Positions 7,429-55,287 of a stretch of 64,000 nucleotides of DNA are shown here, piece after piece (the first letter of the stretch is position 1; each line of letters opens with the position of its first letter). A program made the translations under genes and the position numbers. The DNA lies in NCBI GenBank assembly GCA_046327955.1, contig JAXLXP010000006.1:82977-146976 (forward strand). Reading direction: 5' to 3'. The notes under the pieces are model-generated. The model worked only from the letters and a program-made list of their open reading frames with translations. It was not told the origin of the DNA and ran no database searches. This DNA comes from Candidatus Binatia bacterium. GTDB lineage: Bacteria > Desulfobacterota > Binatia > DP-6.

Positions 7429-7458
7429 TTGACAACGGCGCCGGGGCCTCGGTAGCTT
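7429..7458 (+). promoter_or_regulatory. Sigma70-like promoter candidate (-35 TTGACA, 18-nt spacer, -10 TAGCTT) upstream of the secreted repeat protein gene
   Basis: TTGACA at 7429-7434 and TAGCTT at 7453-7458, read directly from sequence in an AT-richer patch after recX. Confidence 0.3.
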
Positions 7459-7476: not shown

Positions 7477-8946
7477 GTGTCACGGCAACGTCGACCGGCG
7501 TCTGCACGAGGGGGACGACAAGTGGGCCGAGTCGCAAGGATCGGGAGAGCGCTCGCTTCGACCCTTGCGGGGGTTCCCGGACCGCAGCGTGGTGGGGGTG
7601 GGTTTCCCCGCGTCCTGATCGCGCTGGGCCTGTGGCTGGCGGCCGTGCCCTGTCAGGCGTCCGTACCCCCGGCGCTCAGTCTCCCCGGCTACCCGGTGGA
7701 CGCCGCGTATGCCCACCCCGGAGTCGACAGCTTCTTCGACATCACGCTCGCCGGGGTCGGGGGAGGGTTCGACGTCGCCGACGGCACCTACACGGGGTGG
7801 TGCACGGAAGACAACGGACAGGAGAACACCTCTCCCGTGACGTTGTACTCGACGTACGACCCGGCGCTGCCCGGGAACCTCGGCGGGGTGCCCTGGGACC
7901 GGGTCAACTACCTCCTGAACCACAAGCAGGGTGACTGGCAGGAGGTGCAGGCGGCGCTCTGGATGGTCATCTGGGGCGCATCGAACCTCTATCCCGTGAC
8001 GCCCACGGCTCAGGCGATGATCGACGACGCGGCGGCCAATGGCCCCGGGTTCGCGCCCGGAACGGGCGAGATCATCGCCGTCGTCCTGTACACGGGCGAC
8101 GCCGGCATCGCGCCCGAGGGCTTCCAGGATACGGTGATCGAGGTGCCGGTCCCCGTGGTGACGACCACCACCATCACGACGTCGACGACCACCTCGACCA
8201 CCACCAGCACGACCACCACGTCGACCACGAGCACCACCACGACCACCCGCCCGCCGGACACCTTCCAGTGCTACGAGGTCGACGACGAGCCATTCGCCAG
8301 ACAGGTGAGCCTCGACGATCGCTACGGGACCGGCACGGTCGGGCTGCGCAAGGCCTGGCGTCTGTGCAATCCCGCCGGTACCAGCCAGCCGGATCCCCAG
8401 GTGCCGACGCGCATCGAGCACCTGGTCGGATACGCGATCGACCAGACGACTTTCCAGCGTCGGAACGACGTGCACGTGACCCCGCTGCTGAGCCAGTTCC
8501 CTCCGACCACGGTCGACTTGGTGCGGCCCGACGTGATGATGGTCCCGTCCGCGAAGAGTCTCGATGCGCCGCCGGGACCGCTCACGGATCCGGCGATCGA
8601 TCACTTCAAGTGCTACCGCGTCCGGGGAAGGCTCGGCTGGCAGCCGGTCGGCAACGTCACGATCAAGGACGAGTTCACCGACTTCGTGAACCTCAATGGT
8701 GACGGGACGCTGCACGTCGACGTGCGGATTCCGTTCCGGCTCTGTGTGGCTGCCGACAAGAACCATGAGGGGGTTCGCGGGCCCGACGACGCCTTCATGT
8801 GCTACCGGGTACGTGTCACTGCCGGAACGGACACGTTCCGCGGGCCCGACACCTCGGTCTTCGTGGACAACCAGTTCGGGGCCGCCACCTTCGAGAACGT
8901 CCGCCACCTGCGGGAGTTCTGCGTGCGGTCCGCCGTCACGCCCTGA
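7477..8946 (+). CDS. Secreted protein: N-terminal domain, Thr/Ser-rich linker, three C-terminal FxCY...C repeats (hypothetical)
   Basis: Signal-peptide-like LIALGLWLAAVPCQA; in-frame GTG at 7522 is an alternative start; linker TTTTITTSTTTSTTTSTTTTSTTSTTTTT; three repeats with (F/H)xCYxV motif. Confidence 0.55.
   Translation: MSRQRRPASARGGRQVGRVARIGRALASTLAGVPGPQRGGGGFPRVLIALGLWLAAVPCQASVPPALSLPGYPVDAAYAHPGVDSFFDITLAGVGGGFDVADGTYTGWCTEDNGQENTSPVTLYSTYDPALPGNLGGVPWDRVNYLLNHKQGDWQEVQAALWMVIWGASNLYPVTPTAQAMIDDAAANGPGFAPGTGEIIAVVLYTGDAGIAPEGFQDTVIEVPVPVVTTTTITTSTTTSTTTSTTTTSTTSTTTTTRPPDTFQCYEVDDEPFARQVSLDDRYGTGTVGLRKAWRLCNPAGTSQPDPQVPTRIEHLVGYAIDQTTFQRRNDVHVTPLLSQFPPTTVDLVRPDVMMVPSAKSLDAPPGPLTDPAIDHFKCYRVRGRLGWQPVGNVTIKDEFTDFVNLNGDGTLHVDVRIPFRLCVAADKNHEGVRGPDDAFMCYRVRVTAGTDTFRGPDTSVFVDNQFGAATFENVRHLREFCVRSAVTP
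8158..8247 (+). repeat. Thr-codon (ACC/ACG)-rich low-complexity coding repeat (linker)
   Basis: Runs of acgacc/accacc codons; similar low-complexity DNA occurs in 40311-40775. Confidence 0.6.
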
Positions 8947-13258: not shown

Positions 13259-13410
13259 GCGGACGAGTCTCCTTCGGACGGGAGTCTCGCGCAGGGCGCG
13301 CGGAGTGGAGCAGTGGCTAGTAGGCCATCACGTCAAAAATGTCCAGATTCGGCGCACTCCGGCCTTGCCGCGCCTTGCTGCTCCGGAATCGGCCCGGTAG
13401 AACGACCCCC

Positions 13411-16059
<2,649 letters not shown>

Positions 16060-39161: not shown

Positions 39162-41636
39162 TCACGGGAGCAGTGACATGTCGGTCACGAGCGAGAGCCC
39201 GCCGGGTCCGGGCAGGCCTGCCACCGGGTCGATGGTGAGGCTCACACTGCCGATGCAGAACGTCGAGGCGACCGTGACCTCGCTGGCCGCACTGCCGAGC
39301 CCACTGGCCGACGGGGTGCCGCCCTGCTTGATCGTGCGCGCGAGCTTGTGCCCGAACGCTCCGACCTTCTGGCTCGTCTGACCCGAACAGAAGAGGCCGG
39401 TCGTCGACGTCTTCGACGTCGTCCCGGTGGTGAGCGGGTTGAGGGCGATCGGCAAGGGTGCCTGGAAGGCACCGTCGGACGGACAGTCGACGCTCGGCTT
39501 GTTGGCCGTGACGCCGTCGTTGAAGACGCATGACAGCCCCGACCGTGGGCCGCGGCTGCACTGGTTGGCCGCGGTGCAGACTGGGCAGGGAACCGCCACG
39601 TTGCCGGTCAGGTAGACGCGCGACTGGAGGGTGACGTTGAGGGTCACCGTCCCGCTCGCCGTCGTGTCGGCGGTGCCCGAGCTGTCGGTCTCGATGCCGT
39701 TCACGACACAGGTGGAGAGGGCCGGGTTGCCGGGGTTCGGAATCGGGAGCGGGGGCCCGAAGTAGCAGTTGATGTCCGGCTGGCACCCCTTGCCGAAGTT
39801 GCCGCAGTCCGCGTCGGTGGTGCAGACGGCGCCCGCGTTCGCTTGATTGAGGCAGTGCCTGGCAGGGCCCGTCCCGAGCGTGCAGTTCTTGTTGGCTCCG
39901 CCGACCGGGTAGACGTTGAACCCGGTCGTCGTGCCGACACCGGCGTTCGGCCCGAGTGTGAGGGTCGTGCCGTTCTGCTGGGTGATCGTGAAATACTGGC
40001 TCGATCCCGTCGGAATCGGCCCACCCGGGACGGCCGTATTGCTGCCGCCGCCGAGGTACAGACAGCCCCTTCCGAGGTCGCTCAGCTTGCCGTTGGTCGC
40101 GTTGTCGATCTCGCCGGAGAACGGCGGCGCCGGCGGCGGGCCGAGCGTGGTTCCGCACACTCCGCTCGTTCCGCAGTCCGCTCCCGTGGTGCAGGCGCCG
40201 AGCCCGTTGGTGCCGCCCAGATTGCTACCGCCCGTGCAGTGGACGTTCAGGGCCGGGCCGCCGCAGCTCGACGTTCCTGGTTTGAGCGTCATCTTGAGCT
40301 TGCTGAACCCGATCGTGGTGGTCGTCGTCGGGGTCGTGGTGGTGGTCGTGGTCGGAAGCGTCGTGGTGGTCGTCACGATCGTCGTGGACGTCGTCGTCGG
40401 AACCGTGGTGGTCGTCGTGGCGATCGTGGTGGAGGTGGTCGTCGGGATCGTGGTGGTCGTCGTGGCGAGGGTGGTCGTGGTGGTCGTCGGCAGCGTGGTC
40501 GTGGTGGTGACGACGGTGGTGGAGGTGGTCGTCGGAATCGTGGTCGTCGTCGGCGCCACGCACGTGCAGGCGATGCAGGCATCTCCCTCCGGGCAGTTGC
40601 CGAGGATCGCGCCGCCCGCGGACGTGTCGCACTGCTCGCCCTGGTCGAGCTTGCCGTTGCCGCAGAGGGGAATCGTGGTCGTGGTGGTGGCGATGGTCGT
40701 GCTGGTCGTCGCCAGGGTCGTCGTGGTGGTGGCGATCGTCGTCGACGTCGTGGTCGTGACCGTCGGGAGGCCCCTCACGTAGGCGCGGTCGGCGCTCACG
40801 ATGTCCCCCACGACCCGCCCGCGCACGTGCGACTCTTTGCCGAGGCCGACGAGCGCGTGCGGCGCACAGATGATGCCGTCGAGCTGGGCGCGTTTGGAGA
40901 CGCGGACCCGCTCGCCGCGAACGAGGAACTCGACGTTGCGCGGGTCGGTGCCCGAGGACGGCGACGCGCCGGCGAACGCCTCGTTGAACACCTCGAGGTC
41001 GCCGGTGATGAACACCTGCGCCGCGCTGTCGACGAGGAGCTGCGCGCCGCGGGCCAGCCGGAGGTTGCAAAAGACATACGTGCCGCCCGAGAGGCGGAGG
41101 GTGCCGGCGTTGGCGTCGCCGCTGCCGAGCACGAGGACGTCGCTACGGAGCGTCGGTGAGGTCGAGGAGCCGCCGCCGATCGTCTGGAACCCATTGTGCC
41201 CGACCGTGACCGGGGCCCCGCCGCAGTTGGGGAACTGCCGCGGAAAGCCGCAGGCGTCGCCGAGATCGGCGACGAGCGGATCGATCAGGCCGCCGGGCAT
41301 GGCGGGGCAGGCCGCCTGCGTCTCGATCACCTGGCCCGCAAAGAGCCCGCCGCACCGTGACCCGCGGCCGAGCCGCGCGATCTTGGCGACGACGTCCTGC
41401 GCGTGGGCGTCGAGCTTGCCGTGCGTGAGCGCCGAGCCGCTGTTCACCCGAAGCCCGCCCTCGTCGACGTCGAAGAAGCCCTTCGTCCGCACGAGCTGGC
41501 CGGCGAGAACCGCGTAGTCGGCCGGAGCCCGGCTCGGCCGCGGGGCCGCCGTGCGAGCCGGTGGCGCGAACGCGAGCGCTCCTGCCATGATGGCTAGCAA
41601 GCTGCCGACGATCGCGTAGCGCGTGCCTGATCTCAT
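39162..41636 (-). CDS. Large secreted protein (824 aa): N-terminal domain, myxobacterial Cys-rich repeat flanked by Thr-rich tandem linkers, C-terminal Gly/Cys-rich domain
   Basis: ATG 41636 with GGAGGG RBS; signal peptide MRSGTRYAIVGSLLAIMAGALAFA; LCGNGKLDQGEQCDTSAGG matches TIGR02232-type repeat; about five imperfect 17-aa TTTTT(L/I/V)PTTTSTT(I/V)(A/V) units. Confidence 0.7.
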   Translation of the reverse strand: MRSGTRYAIVGSLLAIMAGALAFAPPARTAAPRPSRAPADYAVLAGQLVRTKGFFDVDEGGLRVNSGSALTHGKLDAHAQDVVAKIARLGRGSRCGGLFAGQVIETQAACPAMPGGLIDPLVADLGDACGFPRQFPNCGGAPVTVGHNGFQTIGGGSSTSPTLRSDVLVLGSGDANAGTLRLSGGTYVFCNLRLARGAQLLVDSAAQVFITGDLEVFNEAFAGASPSSGTDPRNVEFLVRGERVRVSKRAQLDGIICAPHALVGLGKESHVRGRVVGDIVSADRAYVRGLPTVTTTTSTTIATTTTTLATTSTTIATTTTTIPLCGNGKLDQGEQCDTSAGGAILGNCPEGDACIACTCVAPTTTTIPTTTSTTVVTTTTTLPTTTTTTLATTTTTIPTTTSTTIATTTTTVPTTTSTTIVTTTTTLPTTTTTTTPTTTTTIGFSKLKMTLKPGTSSCGGPALNVHCTGGSNLGGTNGLGACTTGADCGTSGVCGTTLGPPPAPPFSGEIDNATNGKLSDLGRGCLYLGGGSNTAVPGGPIPTGSSQYFTITQQNGTTLTLGPNAGVGTTTGFNVYPVGGANKNCTLGTGPARHCLNQANAGAVCTTDADCGNFGKGCQPDINCYFGPPLPIPNPGNPALSTCVVNGIETDSSGTADTTASGTVTLNVTLQSRVYLTGNVAVPCPVCTAANQCSRGPRSGLSCVFNDGVTANKPSVDCPSDGAFQAPLPIALNPLTTGTTSKTSTTGLFCSGQTSQKVGAFGHKLARTIKQGGTPSASGLGSAASEVTVASTFCIGSVSLTIDPVAGLPGPGGLSLVTDMSLLP
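40311..40556 (-). repeat. Imperfect tandem ~51-nt repeats encoding a Thr-rich linker
   Basis: Repeated gtcgtggtggtcgtc...ggaaccgtggtg units read directly. Confidence 0.65.
40666..40775 (-). repeat. Second Thr-rich linker-coding low-complexity repeat
   Basis: Encodes TVTTTTSTTIATTTTTLATTSTTIATTTTTIP. Confidence 0.6.
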
Positions 41637-51978: not shown

Positions 51979-54900
51979 TCAGGCGGCGGGTGGCGAAGTC
52001 TCGGCCATGGGGGCGGCACCGGCCTCCAGCGCCGCGCGCAGGCGGTCCGCGCGCCGGCTGTAGTAGGCGAGGCCGAGCTCGGCGGCGACGAGGGAGCCGT
52101 GTGCGAGCTGGGCGCGGCTCCGGGCCAGGTCGCCGCGGGCCGCGGCGAGCTCCGCGTCGCCGATGAGCGCCGCCGCGAGCACGGAGTTGGCGCCGATCGC
52201 CTCGGCGAGGCTGATCGCCCGTGTGAAGGTCCGCGCCGCCTCGCTCCAGCGGTCGGGTCCGAGGCGGGTGAGCACCTGCCCGGCGGCCTCCGCGGTCTGC
52301 GCGGCGATTGCCCGGCCGCCGGTCCGACCGTGGGTCCGCTCGAGGAACCGCTCGGCGCGTCCGAGGTCGCCGACCGCGAGGAATGCCTCACACACGAAGC
52401 GGTAATTGTAGAGCGTGCTGCCGAGCGCTGCCGAGAGTCCCTCGTCGATGAGATCGAGGTAGCGCTGCGGCGACACCGGCTCGCCCCGCTCGAAACGCGA
52501 GAGCAGGGCCACGCCGGCGATCGAGGCGAGCGAGTTGCGGGTGCTGATCGCGCTCGCGATCGCCAGGCTCAGGTCCGCCCAGCGCTGGGCCTCCACGTAC
52601 TCCCCGCGCATGAAATATACGCCGGCGAGCATGCCGGAGGAGCCGCTCTGGACGGTGCGGTTGCCCGCTCGCACCGCGGCCTCGTAGGTGTCCCGGACGG
52701 CGGCGAGCGACGCGTTCGGGTCCTCGCTCAGGTAGTGGATCGCGTCGCTGACCACGCGCGCGCCGAGGTAGAGGTCGGTGAGCTTCTCGGCGTGGCCCAG
52801 CCGCGCCAGCTCGGCCACCACCCAGCCGATCGTCTGCCGCGCGAGCTCGAAGCGGCCGTCCATGAGGTAGGCCGACGCGAGGCCGCGGGCGATGCGGATC
52901 TGCGCCACCTCCCGCCCGGCCCGTTGCGCCACGGCGAGGGCCTCCTCGATCAACGCGAGGCCGCGGGCGAAGCGATCCTCGTCGCCGCCCATCGTGGCCA
53001 TGCCGAGGTAGAGCGTCAGGTAGGCGACCGCTTCGGGGTCGGCGAGCTCGCGTGCGAGCTCGCGCCCGCGTGCCGCGGCACGCTCGACCTGGTCGACCTC
53101 GGTCGAGCCGTAGATGACGCTCACACGGCAGAACTCGAGGCTCGCGTTCACCGCCGCGCGCGTCAGCTCGGGGTGGGCGCCGAGGGCGGCGTCGGCGATC
53201 TCCCAGGCCTGGCGGTAGAGCAGCGCCGCCGTCCCGTACGACGGGACCTTCTCGGTCTCGCGTCCGGCGCGGAGCAGCGCCGCGGTGGCGCTGGCGGCGT
53301 CGTCGCCGCGGGCACGATGATGGGCGAGGAGCACGAGCCGCGCGGCGTCGCCGTCGACGATGCCCTCCTCGAGCTGCGCGGCGACGCGGTCGTGGAGCTG
53401 CCGGCGGTGCTTGAGGAGGAGGCTCTCGTAGGCCACCTCCTGGGTGAGGCTCTCGCCGAATCGGTACTCGTCGAGCGAGAGGAAGTTCTGGCGATGGAGG
53501 ATGCCGCGGCGCAGGAGCTCGTCGAGCTCCTGCCCGACGTCGATCGGCTCCCCCGTGAGCACATGCTCGAGCTCGGGGCGGCGAAACTGCCGGCCGAACA
53601 CGGCCGCCACCTGCACGACGCGCTTGGCCGCCGGGCTCAGCCGGTCGAGACGGGCCGCCAGCACTTCCTGCACGGTGCCCGGGATGGGGATCTCGTGGCC
53701 CTCCTCGACGAGCGCGCGCGTGATCTCCTCGGTGAAGAACGGACTGCCCTCGGCGCGAGCGAGGATGCGCTCCTCGACGTCGTCGGGCAGCGGCCCGCCG
53801 GCGACGGCGCGGACGATCGCGCGCGTGTGCGCTTCCGCCAGCGGCCGCAGGCGGAGCTGCGTGAAGGCGCTCGCGGGCCGCCAGGTCGCCTCGTAGTCGC
53901 GGCGGTGGGTCACCAGCAGCATCACGGACTCGTTGCCGAGCCGCGCGACCGCGTCCTCGAGCATGCGACGCGACTGCGGGTCGATCCAATGGAGGTCCTC
54001 GACGACCATCACGATCGGCGCCTGCCGCGCCAGGCCGACCACCAGATGGGCCACGGCGGCGAAGGTCTGTTCCTCCAGGCCCTCGAGCGCGAGTTCCTCG
54101 CTGCCGGGTGCGCCGGGCGACAGCAGGCGGCAGAGGAACGGGTAGCCGGCGTCGAGGGCGGGCTCGACCGACCGCAACCCGGCTGCGACCTTGCTGCAGA
54201 CGGTCTCGCCCGTCTCGCCCGACTCGAGCGCGAAGTGTCGCCGCAGCATGCCGACGAACGGCGCGTAGGGGACGCTCTGGCTGAGCGCGGCGCAGCGGCC
54301 CTCGAGGACCTGCGTCGGCGTGCCCGCGAGGCGCTCGCGGAACTCGTGCACGAGCCGCGACTTGCCACTGCCGGCGTCGCCCACCACCGCGACCACCTGC
54401 GCCAGCCCCCCGGCGAGGCGCTCGTGACAGGCGAGCAGCTGCGCCAGCTCTTCGGTGCGGCCGACGAACGGCGTCAACCCGCGCTCGACCGCGAGCGCCA
54501 TCGGCGTGCGCGCGTCGGTGCGGCCGGTGACCTCGTGCGCGGTCACGGGCTCGGTGATGCCCTTGAGCGCGAAGGGGCCGCGGGGCTGCAGGTGGAAGGC
54601 GCCGCGGACGAGCCGGGCCGTCGTGTCGCTCACGAGCGTCGTACCGGGCTCGGCGACCGTCTGCAGGCGCTGCGCCAGGTTGGTCGTGTCCCCGATCGCC
54701 GTGTACTCCATCCGCAGGTCGCTGCCGACGGTGCCGACGACGACCGGGCCCGTGTTGACGCCGATGCGCACGCGCAGCGGCTCCTGTCCGAGGCCTTCGA
54801 GCGCGGCGTGGATCGCGAGCGCCGCACGCACGGCCCGCTGCGGCGCGTCCTCGTGCGCGATCGGCGCGCCGAAGAGCGCCATGAAGCCGTCGCCGGCCAG

Positions 54901-55287
54901 GTGCGGCACGATGCCCTCGAGGCGGTAGATCTCCGCGACCGCGCGCTCGAGGTAGGCCTCGAGCCGGTCGTGGTACTCCTCGGGGTCGAGCCGCGCGGCG
55001 AGCGCGGTGGAGCCGACCAGGTCGCAGAAGAGCACGGTGACCTGCTTGCGCTCGCCGGCGGGCAGGTCCCGGGTGGCGCGCAGCTTGTCGGCGAGCCCGG
55101 CGGGGATGTGCTGGGCGAGGCGCGCCAGCCGTGCGTCGGCGAGCGGGGCGCCGCAGCCGGGACAGAACCGGAACCCGGCCTCGACCACGGTGCCGCACTG
55201 TGCGCAGGTCTGCGGCACCGGCGCGCCGCAGTTGTGGCAGAAGGGTTTGCCCGGGAGGAGCTCCGTGCCGCAGCTCGCGCAGTGCAT
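51979..55287 (-). CDS. Multidomain adenylate/guanylate cyclase: N-terminal double zinc ribbon, class III cyclase domain, STAND/AAA NTPase, C-terminal TPR-like array
   Basis: 1102 aa; CASCG...CHNCG...CAQCG...CPGCG; cyclase VTVLFCDLVGSTAL, GDGFMALFGAP, RIGVNTGPVVVG; P-loop VVGDAGSGKSRLV. Confidence 0.85.
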   Translation of the reverse strand: MHCASCGTELLPGKPFCHNCGAPVPQTCAQCGTVVEAGFRFCPGCGAPLADARLARLAQHIPAGLADKLRATRDLPAGERKQVTVLFCDLVGSTALAARLDPEEYHDRLEAYLERAVAEIYRLEGIVPHLAGDGFMALFGAPIAHEDAPQRAVRAALAIHAALEGLGQEPLRVRIGVNTGPVVVGTVGSDLRMEYTAIGDTTNLAQRLQTVAEPGTTLVSDTTARLVRGAFHLQPRGPFALKGITEPVTAHEVTGRTDARTPMALAVERGLTPFVGRTEELAQLLACHERLAGGLAQVVAVVGDAGSGKSRLVHEFRERLAGTPTQVLEGRCAALSQSVPYAPFVGMLRRHFALESGETGETVCSKVAAGLRSVEPALDAGYPFLCRLLSPGAPGSEELALEGLEEQTFAAVAHLVVGLARQAPIVMVVEDLHWIDPQSRRMLEDAVARLGNESVMLLVTHRRDYEATWRPASAFTQLRLRPLAEAHTRAIVRAVAGGPLPDDVEERILARAEGSPFFTEEITRALVEEGHEIPIPGTVQEVLAARLDRLSPAAKRVVQVAAVFGRQFRRPELEHVLTGEPIDVGQELDELLRRGILHRQNFLSLDEYRFGESLTQEVAYESLLLKHRRQLHDRVAAQLEEGIVDGDAARLVLLAHHRARGDDAASATAALLRAGRETEKVPSYGTAALLYRQAWEIADAALGAHPELTRAAVNASLEFCRVSVIYGSTEVDQVERAAARGRELARELADPEAVAYLTLYLGMATMGGDEDRFARGLALIEEALAVAQRAGREVAQIRIARGLASAYLMDGRFELARQTIGWVVAELARLGHAEKLTDLYLGARVVSDAIHYLSEDPNASLAAVRDTYEAAVRAGNRTVQSGSSGMLAGVYFMRGEYVEAQRWADLSLAIASAISTRNSLASIAGVALLSRFERGEPVSPQRYLDLIDEGLSAALGSTLYNYRFVCEAFLAVGDLGRAERFLERTHGRTGGRAIAAQTAEAAGQVLTRLGPDRWSEAARTFTRAISLAEAIGANSVLAAALIGDAELAAARGDLARSRAQLAHGSLVAAELGLAYYSRRADRLRAALEAGAAPMAETSPPAA

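Follow-up and report, generated by a model that had tools for sequence, protein, structure and literature searches.

To our knowledge, covalent binding of a target by a bacterial adhesin is known only for adhesins with an internal thioester. Their thioester domain (TED) is composed of an antiparallel beta-barrel of six strands plus a bundle of three helices, with a signature of three motifs: a strand carries [YFL]C-Phi-zeta, the central helix TQxx-Phi-W and a late strand Phi-Q-zeta-Phi-Phi. Universal conservation is restricted to the bonding Cys and Gln, the TQxx-Phi-W motif being found in most, not all, TEDs (PMC4450167, PMC6194298). In the literature up to 2026, TEDs are treated as exclusive to Gram-positive bacteria (Firmicutes and Actinobacteria) (PMC4450167, PMC6194298, PMC8092201), and the presence of isopeptide domains outside Gram-positive bacteria was settled only in 2021–2025 (PMC12617251). 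Here, we describe a gene located at positions 7477–8946 (+) of a 64-kb stretch of DNA from Candidatus Binatia (the whole of this stretch is referred to as the window), the product of which has a TED-like N-terminal head, a Thr/Ser linker and a C-terminal module of four DUF7450 repeats, and is probably a secreted covalent adhesin. Binatia are among the Gram-negative lineages formerly placed in Deltaproteobacteria.

The N-terminal head and described thioester domains

The N-terminal domain was passed over in an earlier note on this DNA, yet it shows a TED fold. The model of residues 62–228 (numbered according to the 489-aa reading frame beginning at GTG 7477) generated by AlphaFold2 (AF2) with a 45-sequence alignment had a pLDDT of 96.6 and a pTM of 0.92, and contained six strands along with four helices, three of them long and one short, corresponding to the six-stranded barrel and three-helix bundle of TEDs. 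The ten best matches of this model in the PDB identified by Foldseek were all TEDs (5a0g/5a0d CpTIE, 5dcq FNE and 5a0n PnTIE, with probabilities of 0.87–1.0), and the next match beyond the TEDs had an E value above 1. In the fold comparison with individual TED structures, the scores obtained were 9.6 for 2xi9 (Cpa), 9.5 for 6fwv (BaTIE), 9.2 for 5a0g (CpTIE), 8.2 for 5a0l (SfbI), 8.0 for 5dcq (FNE), 7.7 for 6fx6 (SaTIE), 7.5 for 5a0n (PnTIE) and 6.8 for 6fwy (EfmTIE86).

All three TED motifs were found in the expected places: W-C109-T-E; V-Q158-A-A-L-W162, which lies within helix 93–104 of the domain model; and F-Q217-D-T-V-I-E, in which DSSP places Gln217 two residues ahead of the last strand. 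Cys109 is conserved in 233 of 235 relatives and Gln217 in all 235, with slightly lower counts for Gln158 (222/235) and Trp162 (217/235); the residue following the Cys is I, V, L or A, and the next one is E, D or Q. Judging from these aligned sequences, the conservation pattern of the relatives is that of TEDs, and, according to the model, residues 62–228 have both the TED fold and its signature residues. Gln158 was considered as the thioester-forming Gln and rejected, since Walden et al. show the helix Gln to be non-bonding and the counterpart of the bonding residue is the invariant Gln217.

The direct sequence signal for a TED is weak, and the link is provided only by structure, motifs and sub-threshold matches of the relatives. 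Residues 62–228 had no match in Pfam or NCBIfam at E ≤ 10. In a set of 45 relatives, the TED model PF08341 was the best-scoring of the sub-threshold Pfam matches, which concerned one member each (1/45, E 0.025), and it was found, again below threshold, in 5 of 77 further relatives (best E 0.0029). The top NCBIfam match among the relatives was TIGR03934 (TQXA_dom), which was also sub-threshold (3/45, E 0.0063).

The head shares with class I TEDs (CpTIE-TED 5a0g, SfbI-TED 5a0l, Cpa 2xi9 and PnTIE-TED 5a0n; PF08341, TIGR03934) the Cys at a strand end, the central-helix Q/W and the Gln about nine residues before the domain end, with only the Cys and Gln universal. It also occupies the same N-terminal position directly after the signal peptide, and stalk domains and sorting signals at the C-terminus are likewise present in its relatives. 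However, the Cys-Gln spacing is 108 residues rather than 129–153 (129 in CpTIE-TED, the difference from which is located in the shorter helical part of the head). Furthermore, published TEDs are regarded as restricted to Gram-positive bacteria, whereas the TED-like family is found in Binatia, Acidobacteriota and Chloroflexota, with PEP-CTERM or type IX secretion system (T9SS) signals and no LPXTG, and its thioester is predicted. Class II TEDs (BaTIE 6fwv, SaTIE 6fx6, EfmTIE86 6fwy and the pLS20 conjugation adhesin) are characterized by a beta-sandwich insertion of ~75 residues and a slipknot, neither of which is present in the head. The head consists of 167 residues, with a short linker between its last helix and its last two strands, and it is this short linker, together with the lack of a beta-sandwich insert, that makes it class-I-like. 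In complement C3 and alpha-2-macroglobulin (CGEQ), an internal Cys-Gln thioester is used for covalent capture. The chemistry predicted for the head is the same, but the alpha/alpha-toroid fold and the motif of these proteins are unrelated, and none of them appeared among the fold matches of the head.

Relatives of the head and their architectures

With a five-sequence profile of the head and an E value limit of 0.001, 1,743 of 1.84 billion cluster representatives were retrieved, 935 of them at E ≤ 1e-10. The family is found in metagenome-assembled genomes (MAGs) of Binatia, Acidobacteriota and Chloroflexota, and the named sources include Anaerolineales and Thermoanaerobaculales. To the extent that the model of the head applies to it, this large family has the TED fold and signature, and it is not labelled as such by current domain libraries; it may already be described in newer database releases or in papers beyond the literature searched. 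Precomputed Pfam labels are incomplete, as the 474-aa product of our gene is unlabelled despite a DUF7450 match of 48.8 bits with hmmscan, and the lack of a label on a relative is therefore weak evidence.

The larger relatives pair the TED-like domain with SdrD_B, DUF11, DUF7507, SpaA-like, Big_9, cadherin-like and PKD domains. DUF11 and DUF7507 are the "CLIPPER" stalk domains with isopeptide bonds that were recently shown to occur in Gram-negative adhesins (PMC12617251). P0172, a protein of 616 aa, has a T9SS type A sorting domain (30 bits, cut-off 23), and PEP-CTERM matches were found in 7 of 77 short representatives; P0237, for example, consists of a signal peptide, a TED-like domain and VPEP-TM-RRRKK. 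A MYXO-CTERM match close to the threshold was obtained for P0013 (18.2 vs 20 bits), dockerin type I domains occur in five of the 77 short members, and LPXTG was found in none of 136 representatives. The sorting signals of the relatives are thus of the diderm kind, and the head-stalk-anchor plan of the Gram-positive thioester, isopeptide, ester (TIE) proteins is built here with Gram-negative parts. The logic of the TIE proteins is shared, with SdrD_B, DUF11 and DUF7507 stalks added in members of the family. The protein encoded in the window differs from the TIE proteins in that a low-complexity Thr/Ser linker serves as its stalk and a folded DUF7450 module replaces the sortase signal. The head is located at the N-terminus after the signal peptide, as in TED surface proteins, in a protein with neither their LPXTG anchor nor a Gram-positive host.

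Some further features of the family were recorded. P0172 contains three tandem TED-like stretches, and P0261 and P0271 are also among the members with T9SS type A, PEP-CTERM or MYXO-CTERM-like C-terminal signals. Most short members end in a domain of ~110 residues with the motifs GCTPGYWKNH...RHGTAALLNA...NELGC, which was seen in P0002, P0005, P0096, P0104, P0109 and P0138 (about residues 195–300). Some short members carry the precomputed label PF27764.

The first homologue search yielded no full-length homologue of the protein. Among the representatives, P0208 is an N-terminally truncated fragment of 343 aa that is collinear with residues 111–485 (34% identity, E 1e-60) and has Cys pairs in all four repeats, including repeat 2. 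It was the only other protein found with a fusion of a TED-like head to DUF7450, and, because it is collinear over both modules, the pairing of head and DUF7450 recurs in a divergent relative. P0208 has no Thr/Ser linker, and this stretch is therefore a lineage-specific, later spacer. The window contains one copy each of the TED-like domain and DUF7450, and no further copies.

The DUF7450 repeat module

The C-terminal region had been described as three repeats of 65–75 aa, each with a (F/H)xCYxV motif and a second cysteine, and not recognized as a named domain. The motifs themselves are present, as FQCYEV (Cys265), FKCYRV (Cys379) and FMCYRV (Cys442), and so are the second cysteines, in LCNPA (Cys297), LCVAAD (Cys423) and FCVRS (Cys482), which lie 32, 44 and 40 residues downstream, respectively. 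The tandem repetition is real, but three repeats of such lengths do not fit, because the CY motifs are separated by 114 and 63 residues. A fourth unit was found between the first and second CY units in an alignment with 34 homologous modules, and the region is composed of four repeats of 50–65 aa. All six pairwise comparisons of the repeat profiles gave HHalign probabilities of 98.2–99.7% (E 1e-14 to 1e-25), with values of 98.7–99.0% for repeat 2 against the other three; the repeat structure is therefore far beyond chance.

The region belongs to Pfam family PF24247 ("Repeat of unknown function (DUF7450)"), for which the whole protein scored 48.8 bits and the isolated module (residues 258–489) 52.3 bits (gathering cut-off 27). 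It is thus named, although uncharacterized. A Pfam match of this kind, on which the claim of an unnamed domain turned, was essentially obtained with the region as a whole; repeat 3 alone reached only 22.9 bits (E 7.9e-5), under the cut-off, and the other single repeats had no PF24247 match. Taken alone, the repeats that had been flagged are an ordinary instance of a family already catalogued in Pfam as being of unknown function. Tandem units of the form hFxCYxV...DQFG...LCxPxxK, with a Cys pair per unit in the family, were counted four times in the protein, which differs from PF24247 in that its repeat 2 has no Cys pair. In this repeat, the protein has IEHLVGYAI...DVMMVPSAK, where more distant homologues have HLMCYRI...LCNPAEK, and the closest relatives likewise lack the pair.

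The Cys columns were counted in 65–75 homologous modules per repeat. Both columns were occupied by Cys in 63, 14, 73 and 71 modules for repeats 1 to 4, respectively, and neither column in 2, 55, 2 and 0; no module had only one of the two cysteines in any repeat. Since these columns are occupied jointly or not at all, each of the Cys-bearing repeats very probably contains one intra-repeat disulfide, as far as aligned sequences can indicate, and the disulfide stabilization raised in the earlier note gains support from this pattern without singletons. A structure prediction had also been called for. The model obtained for the module is confident (pLDDT 91.5, pTM 0.89) and all-beta, with the four repeats in one compact unit, but it had no significant fold match in the PDB, and the search of PDB sequences was empty.

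A search with the module in 5.8 billion proteins gave 71 matches, 67 of which had the whole module of ~225 residues. These ~67 homologues can be aligned with it from end to end, and they come from MAGs of Binatia, "delta proteobacterium", Thermodesulfobacteriota and Actinomycetota. The many different partners of the module in these proteins include SdrD_B, Beta_helix, Trypsin_2, beta-propellers, CarboxypepD_reg and DUF11. The module lies no more than 25 residues from the C-terminus in 38 of the 67 homologues, and in 32 it is preceded by a T/S/P-rich linker. The loci of two of the homologues had no conserved neighbour genes, and no papers on DUF7450 were found. The anatomy of DUF7450 gained here (four repeats with one probable disulfide each, mostly C-terminal behind T/S/P linkers) is accompanied by a candidate role as an anchoring or binding module.

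Proposed mode of action and alternatives

From the fold, the motifs and their conservation, the repeat anatomy and the fusion described above, we infer a thioester, an adhesin role and a role for DUF7450. We consider it rather probable that the protein is secreted and works as a covalent adhesin, with the thioester in its head, the Thr/Ser stretch as its stalk and DUF7450 as the anchoring or binding module. It would be a surface or extracellular protein of Candidatus Binatia, made up of three parts and secreted by the Sec pathway. For the head, the prediction is an autocatalytic condensation of Cys109 with Gln217 that releases NH3 and yields an internal thioester. This thioester would be a buried but accessible electrophile, subject to attack by a nucleophile of the target, typically a lysine amine, as in the Gram-positive TED adhesins, and the attack would join the target to Gln217 by an intermolecular isopeptide bond, resulting in covalent adhesion. 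The 29-residue Thr/Ser stretch would act as an extended linker. The tail, a DUF7450 module of ~230 residues with four tandem beta repeats of ~55 residues, three with one putative disulfide staple each, would most likely retain the protein on the surface or matrix of the producer, or add a second, non-covalent binding specificity. Such a role is suggested by the presence of a stalk and a sorting signal at this place in the relatives, and by the terminal position of the module behind T/S/P linkers in other proteins. As the pLS20 adhesin demonstrates, adhesins with a TED can work from one bacterium to another (PMC8092201), and, by analogy, such action may suit an environmental organism.

Several points weigh against this reading. 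The Foldseek TM-scores are only 0.42–0.51, and the head is not recognized by the curated TED hidden Markov models (HMMs) PF08341 and TIGR03934, even at E ≤ 10. Profiles of the family (5 and 45 sequences) retrieved no TED chain from the PDB sequences, only chance matches or none. The head has a Trp before the Cys (W-C-Phi-[ED]) where TEDs have Y, F or L ([YFL]C), and a Val or Ile in the helix motif ([VI]Q) where they have Thr (TQ), and its helical subdomain is ~30 residues shorter than that of CpTIE-TED. Thioester formation is predicted only, from the chemistry established for TEDs, and retention at the surface is a conjecture, as no sorting signal (LPXTG, PEP-CTERM, MYXO-CTERM or T9SS) was recognized in the protein with Pfam or NCBIfam, its end being ...FCVRSAVTP. 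What is proposed for DUF7450 derives only from its position within proteins, and the neighbouring genes (pilT-like, recX and cytochrome oxidase) offer no functional context.

The failure of the curated HMMs, the W-C and V/I-Q variants, which lie outside the experimentally validated TED motifs, the shortened helical subdomain and the moderate TM-scores would also be compatible with a TED fold devoid of a reactive thioester, in which the head binds non-covalently or its Cys is involved in redox reactions or metal binding. We regard this as unlikely, because the Cys and Gln217 are almost the sole universally kept residues, the hallmark given for functional TEDs in the literature, and a merely structural role would leave the invariant Gln at the equivalent of the strand Gln unexplained. 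The polarity could also be reversed, the thioester head attaching itself to the envelope, exopolysaccharide or protein matrix of the producer and DUF7450 pointing outwards as the binding module. The lack of a sorting signal in the protein, the generic reactivity of TEDs towards amines and the occurrence of DUF7450 as the terminal module on many different passenger domains, as expected for a binding module, would agree with such an arrangement. However, relatives that end in PEP-CTERM or T9SS signals have the TED-like domain at the N-terminal, distal end, and the TED of Gram-positive TIE proteins points outwards, matching these relatives; we therefore consider the reversed arrangement quite improbable.

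The interpretation closest to the earlier note, that of a secreted protein of unknown function in which a new, unnamed, disulfide-stabilized beta-sandwich repeat occurs three times behind an unremarkable N-terminal domain, is very unlikely to hold, given that the region is a member of PF24247 above threshold, that four repeats form one compact unit rather than three, and that the N-terminal domain is clearly TED-like. A secreted cysteine hydrolase or transglutaminase that uses Cys109 and His149 as a catalytic pair, and for which DUF7450 would bind the substrate like a carbohydrate-binding module (CBM) behind a glycosylated linker, is hardly credible despite the conservation of Cys109, the frequency of His149 (199/235) and the joining of DUF7450 by T/S/P linkers to enzyme-like domains elsewhere, including Trypsin_2 and Beta_helix, since every significant fold match was a TED, with no papain-like, NlpC/P60 or transglutaminase fold among them, His149 is replaced by Asn in 33 members and no peptidase or transglutaminase was matched in Pfam or NCBIfam.

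If the well-conserved TED-like family, with its PEP-CTERM or T9SS anchors, does form thioesters, covalent adhesion would extend to diderm and environmental bacteria, non-host targets (other microbes, matrix or particles) would be indicated, and small thioester modules of ~165 residues could be provided for protein-ligation tools. The chances are about even, in our judgement, that the head is the founding example of a large unannotated clade of compact thioester domains, serving as covalent "chemical harpoon" adhesins in Gram-negative and environmental bacteria (Binatia, Acidobacteriota, Chloroflexota and T9SS/PEP-CTERM lineages), and coupled here to a DUF7450 module without counterpart among solved structures.

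Gene, secretion signal and linker

The features of the gene and its product are listed in Table 1. The open reading frame (ORF) reported previously exists and encodes 489 aa, with cysteines at residues 59, 109, 265, 297, 379, 423, 442 and 482. Nevertheless, the true start codon is likely to be GTG 7522, yielding a product of 474 aa, rather than GTG 7477. GTG 7522 is favoured because it is preceded, at a distance of 6 nt, by the Shine-Dalgarno-like sequence GAGGGGGA, and because an identical 474-aa product was called from the same start on an independent Logan assembly (SRR26348421_274162, 778–2202). No ribosome-binding site was found upstream of GTG 7477, and an exact look-up found no record of the 489-aa version.

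Table 1. Coordinates of the features identified at the locus in the 64-kb window (aa, residues of the 489-aa reading frame).
Feature	Position	Strand	Description
Possible sigma-70-type promoter	7429–7458	+	TTGACA 7429–7434, 18-nt spacer, TAGCTT 7453–7458
ORF as first given	7477–8946	+	489 aa from first GTG, stop codon included in the coordinates
Shine-Dalgarno-like sequence and start codon	7508–7524	+	GAGGGGGA 7508–7515, then GTG start 7522–7524
Putative signal peptide	7522–7659	+	Long Arg/Gly-rich n-region, h-region VLIALGLWLAAVP, site CQA/S between aa 61 and 62
TED-like domain	7660–8160	+	aa 62–228; six beta-strands and helical bundle
Cys109 codon (GW-C-TE)	7801–7803	+	Predicted thioester-forming Cys, end of beta-strand 3
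Gln158-Ala-Ala-Leu-Trp162 (..VQAALW..)	7948–7962	+	Central helix; counterpart of TED TQxx-Phi-W
Gln217 codon (GF-Q-DTVIE)	8125–8127	+	Predicted thioester-forming Gln, N-terminal edge of last strand
Thr/Ser linker	8161–8247	+	aa 229–257; 28 Thr/Ser and 1 Ile
DUF7450 repeat 1	8251–8400	+	aa 259–308; Cys265...Cys297
DUF7450 repeat 2	8401–8580	+	aa 309–368; Cys-less, Gly318 and Met355 in the Cys columns
DUF7450 repeat 3	8581–8775	+	aa 369–433; Cys379...Cys423
DUF7450 repeat 4	8776–8943	+	aa 434–489; Cys442...Cys482, protein end 7 residues past the last Cys

The hydrophobic segment read from the translation ends in ...AVPCQA, followed by Ser, and VLIALGLWLAAVP together with this site resembles a signal peptidase I signal, from which we infer putative secretion by the Sec pathway. 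In the homologues, apparently cleavable signal peptides end directly ahead of a conserved LxLP motif. The proposal of a secreted protein is thus supported by the signal segment, and the protein is in addition modular. A lipoprotein was rejected because the presumptive lipobox AVPC has a Pro at position −1, and a Tat signal because ~40 residues separate the RR from the hydrophobic core that follows it; the RR probably also precedes the true start. The Thr/Ser linker, previously given as 33 aa, is present with a length of 29 aa.

The sigma-70-like promoter proposed for this gene is present in sequence, with the spacer as described, and it sits in the 58-nt gap after recX. It is the single TTGACA-N16–18-TAnnnT site in the window, but its −10 element matches the consensus at only three of six positions, and for this reason the site was not called in a consensus promoter scan. 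On sequence grounds, TTGACA/TAGCTT is a plausible promoter of the gene. The upstream neighbours are genes for a pilT-like ATPase and recX, and cytochrome oxidase subunits are encoded downstream on the opposite strand. An antisense ORF of 475 aa lies opposite the gene (7480–8907, −), and similar long overlapping ORFs occur at many loci; these long antisense or overlapping ORFs are mechanical products of a G+C content of ~70%, not genes. The Myxococcota lineage presumed for this DNA was incorrect: the source is Candidatus Binatia, and the alanyl-tRNA synthetase (AlaRS) encoded at 13339–16056 (+) is 100% identical to a Binatia MAG protein, with Binatia also accounting for most of its other named best matches.

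The linker design had been considered common to this protein and a second one, encoded at 39162–41636 (−). Thr-rich linkers are indeed present in both, but nothing else is shared, and the second gene lies on the minus strand. Its product is large, looks secreted and contains a Cys-rich CGNGKLDQGEQCD motif in addition to several long linkers rich in Thr; the sole Pfam signal is a sub-threshold match to DUF7305 (21.3 bits), and the product, which has no other annotation, is unrelated to the protein described here. Elsewhere in the window, a 1,102-aa protein encoded at 51979–55287 (−) has a double zinc ribbon together with domains of the adenylate/guanylate cyclase and AAA_16 ATPase types.

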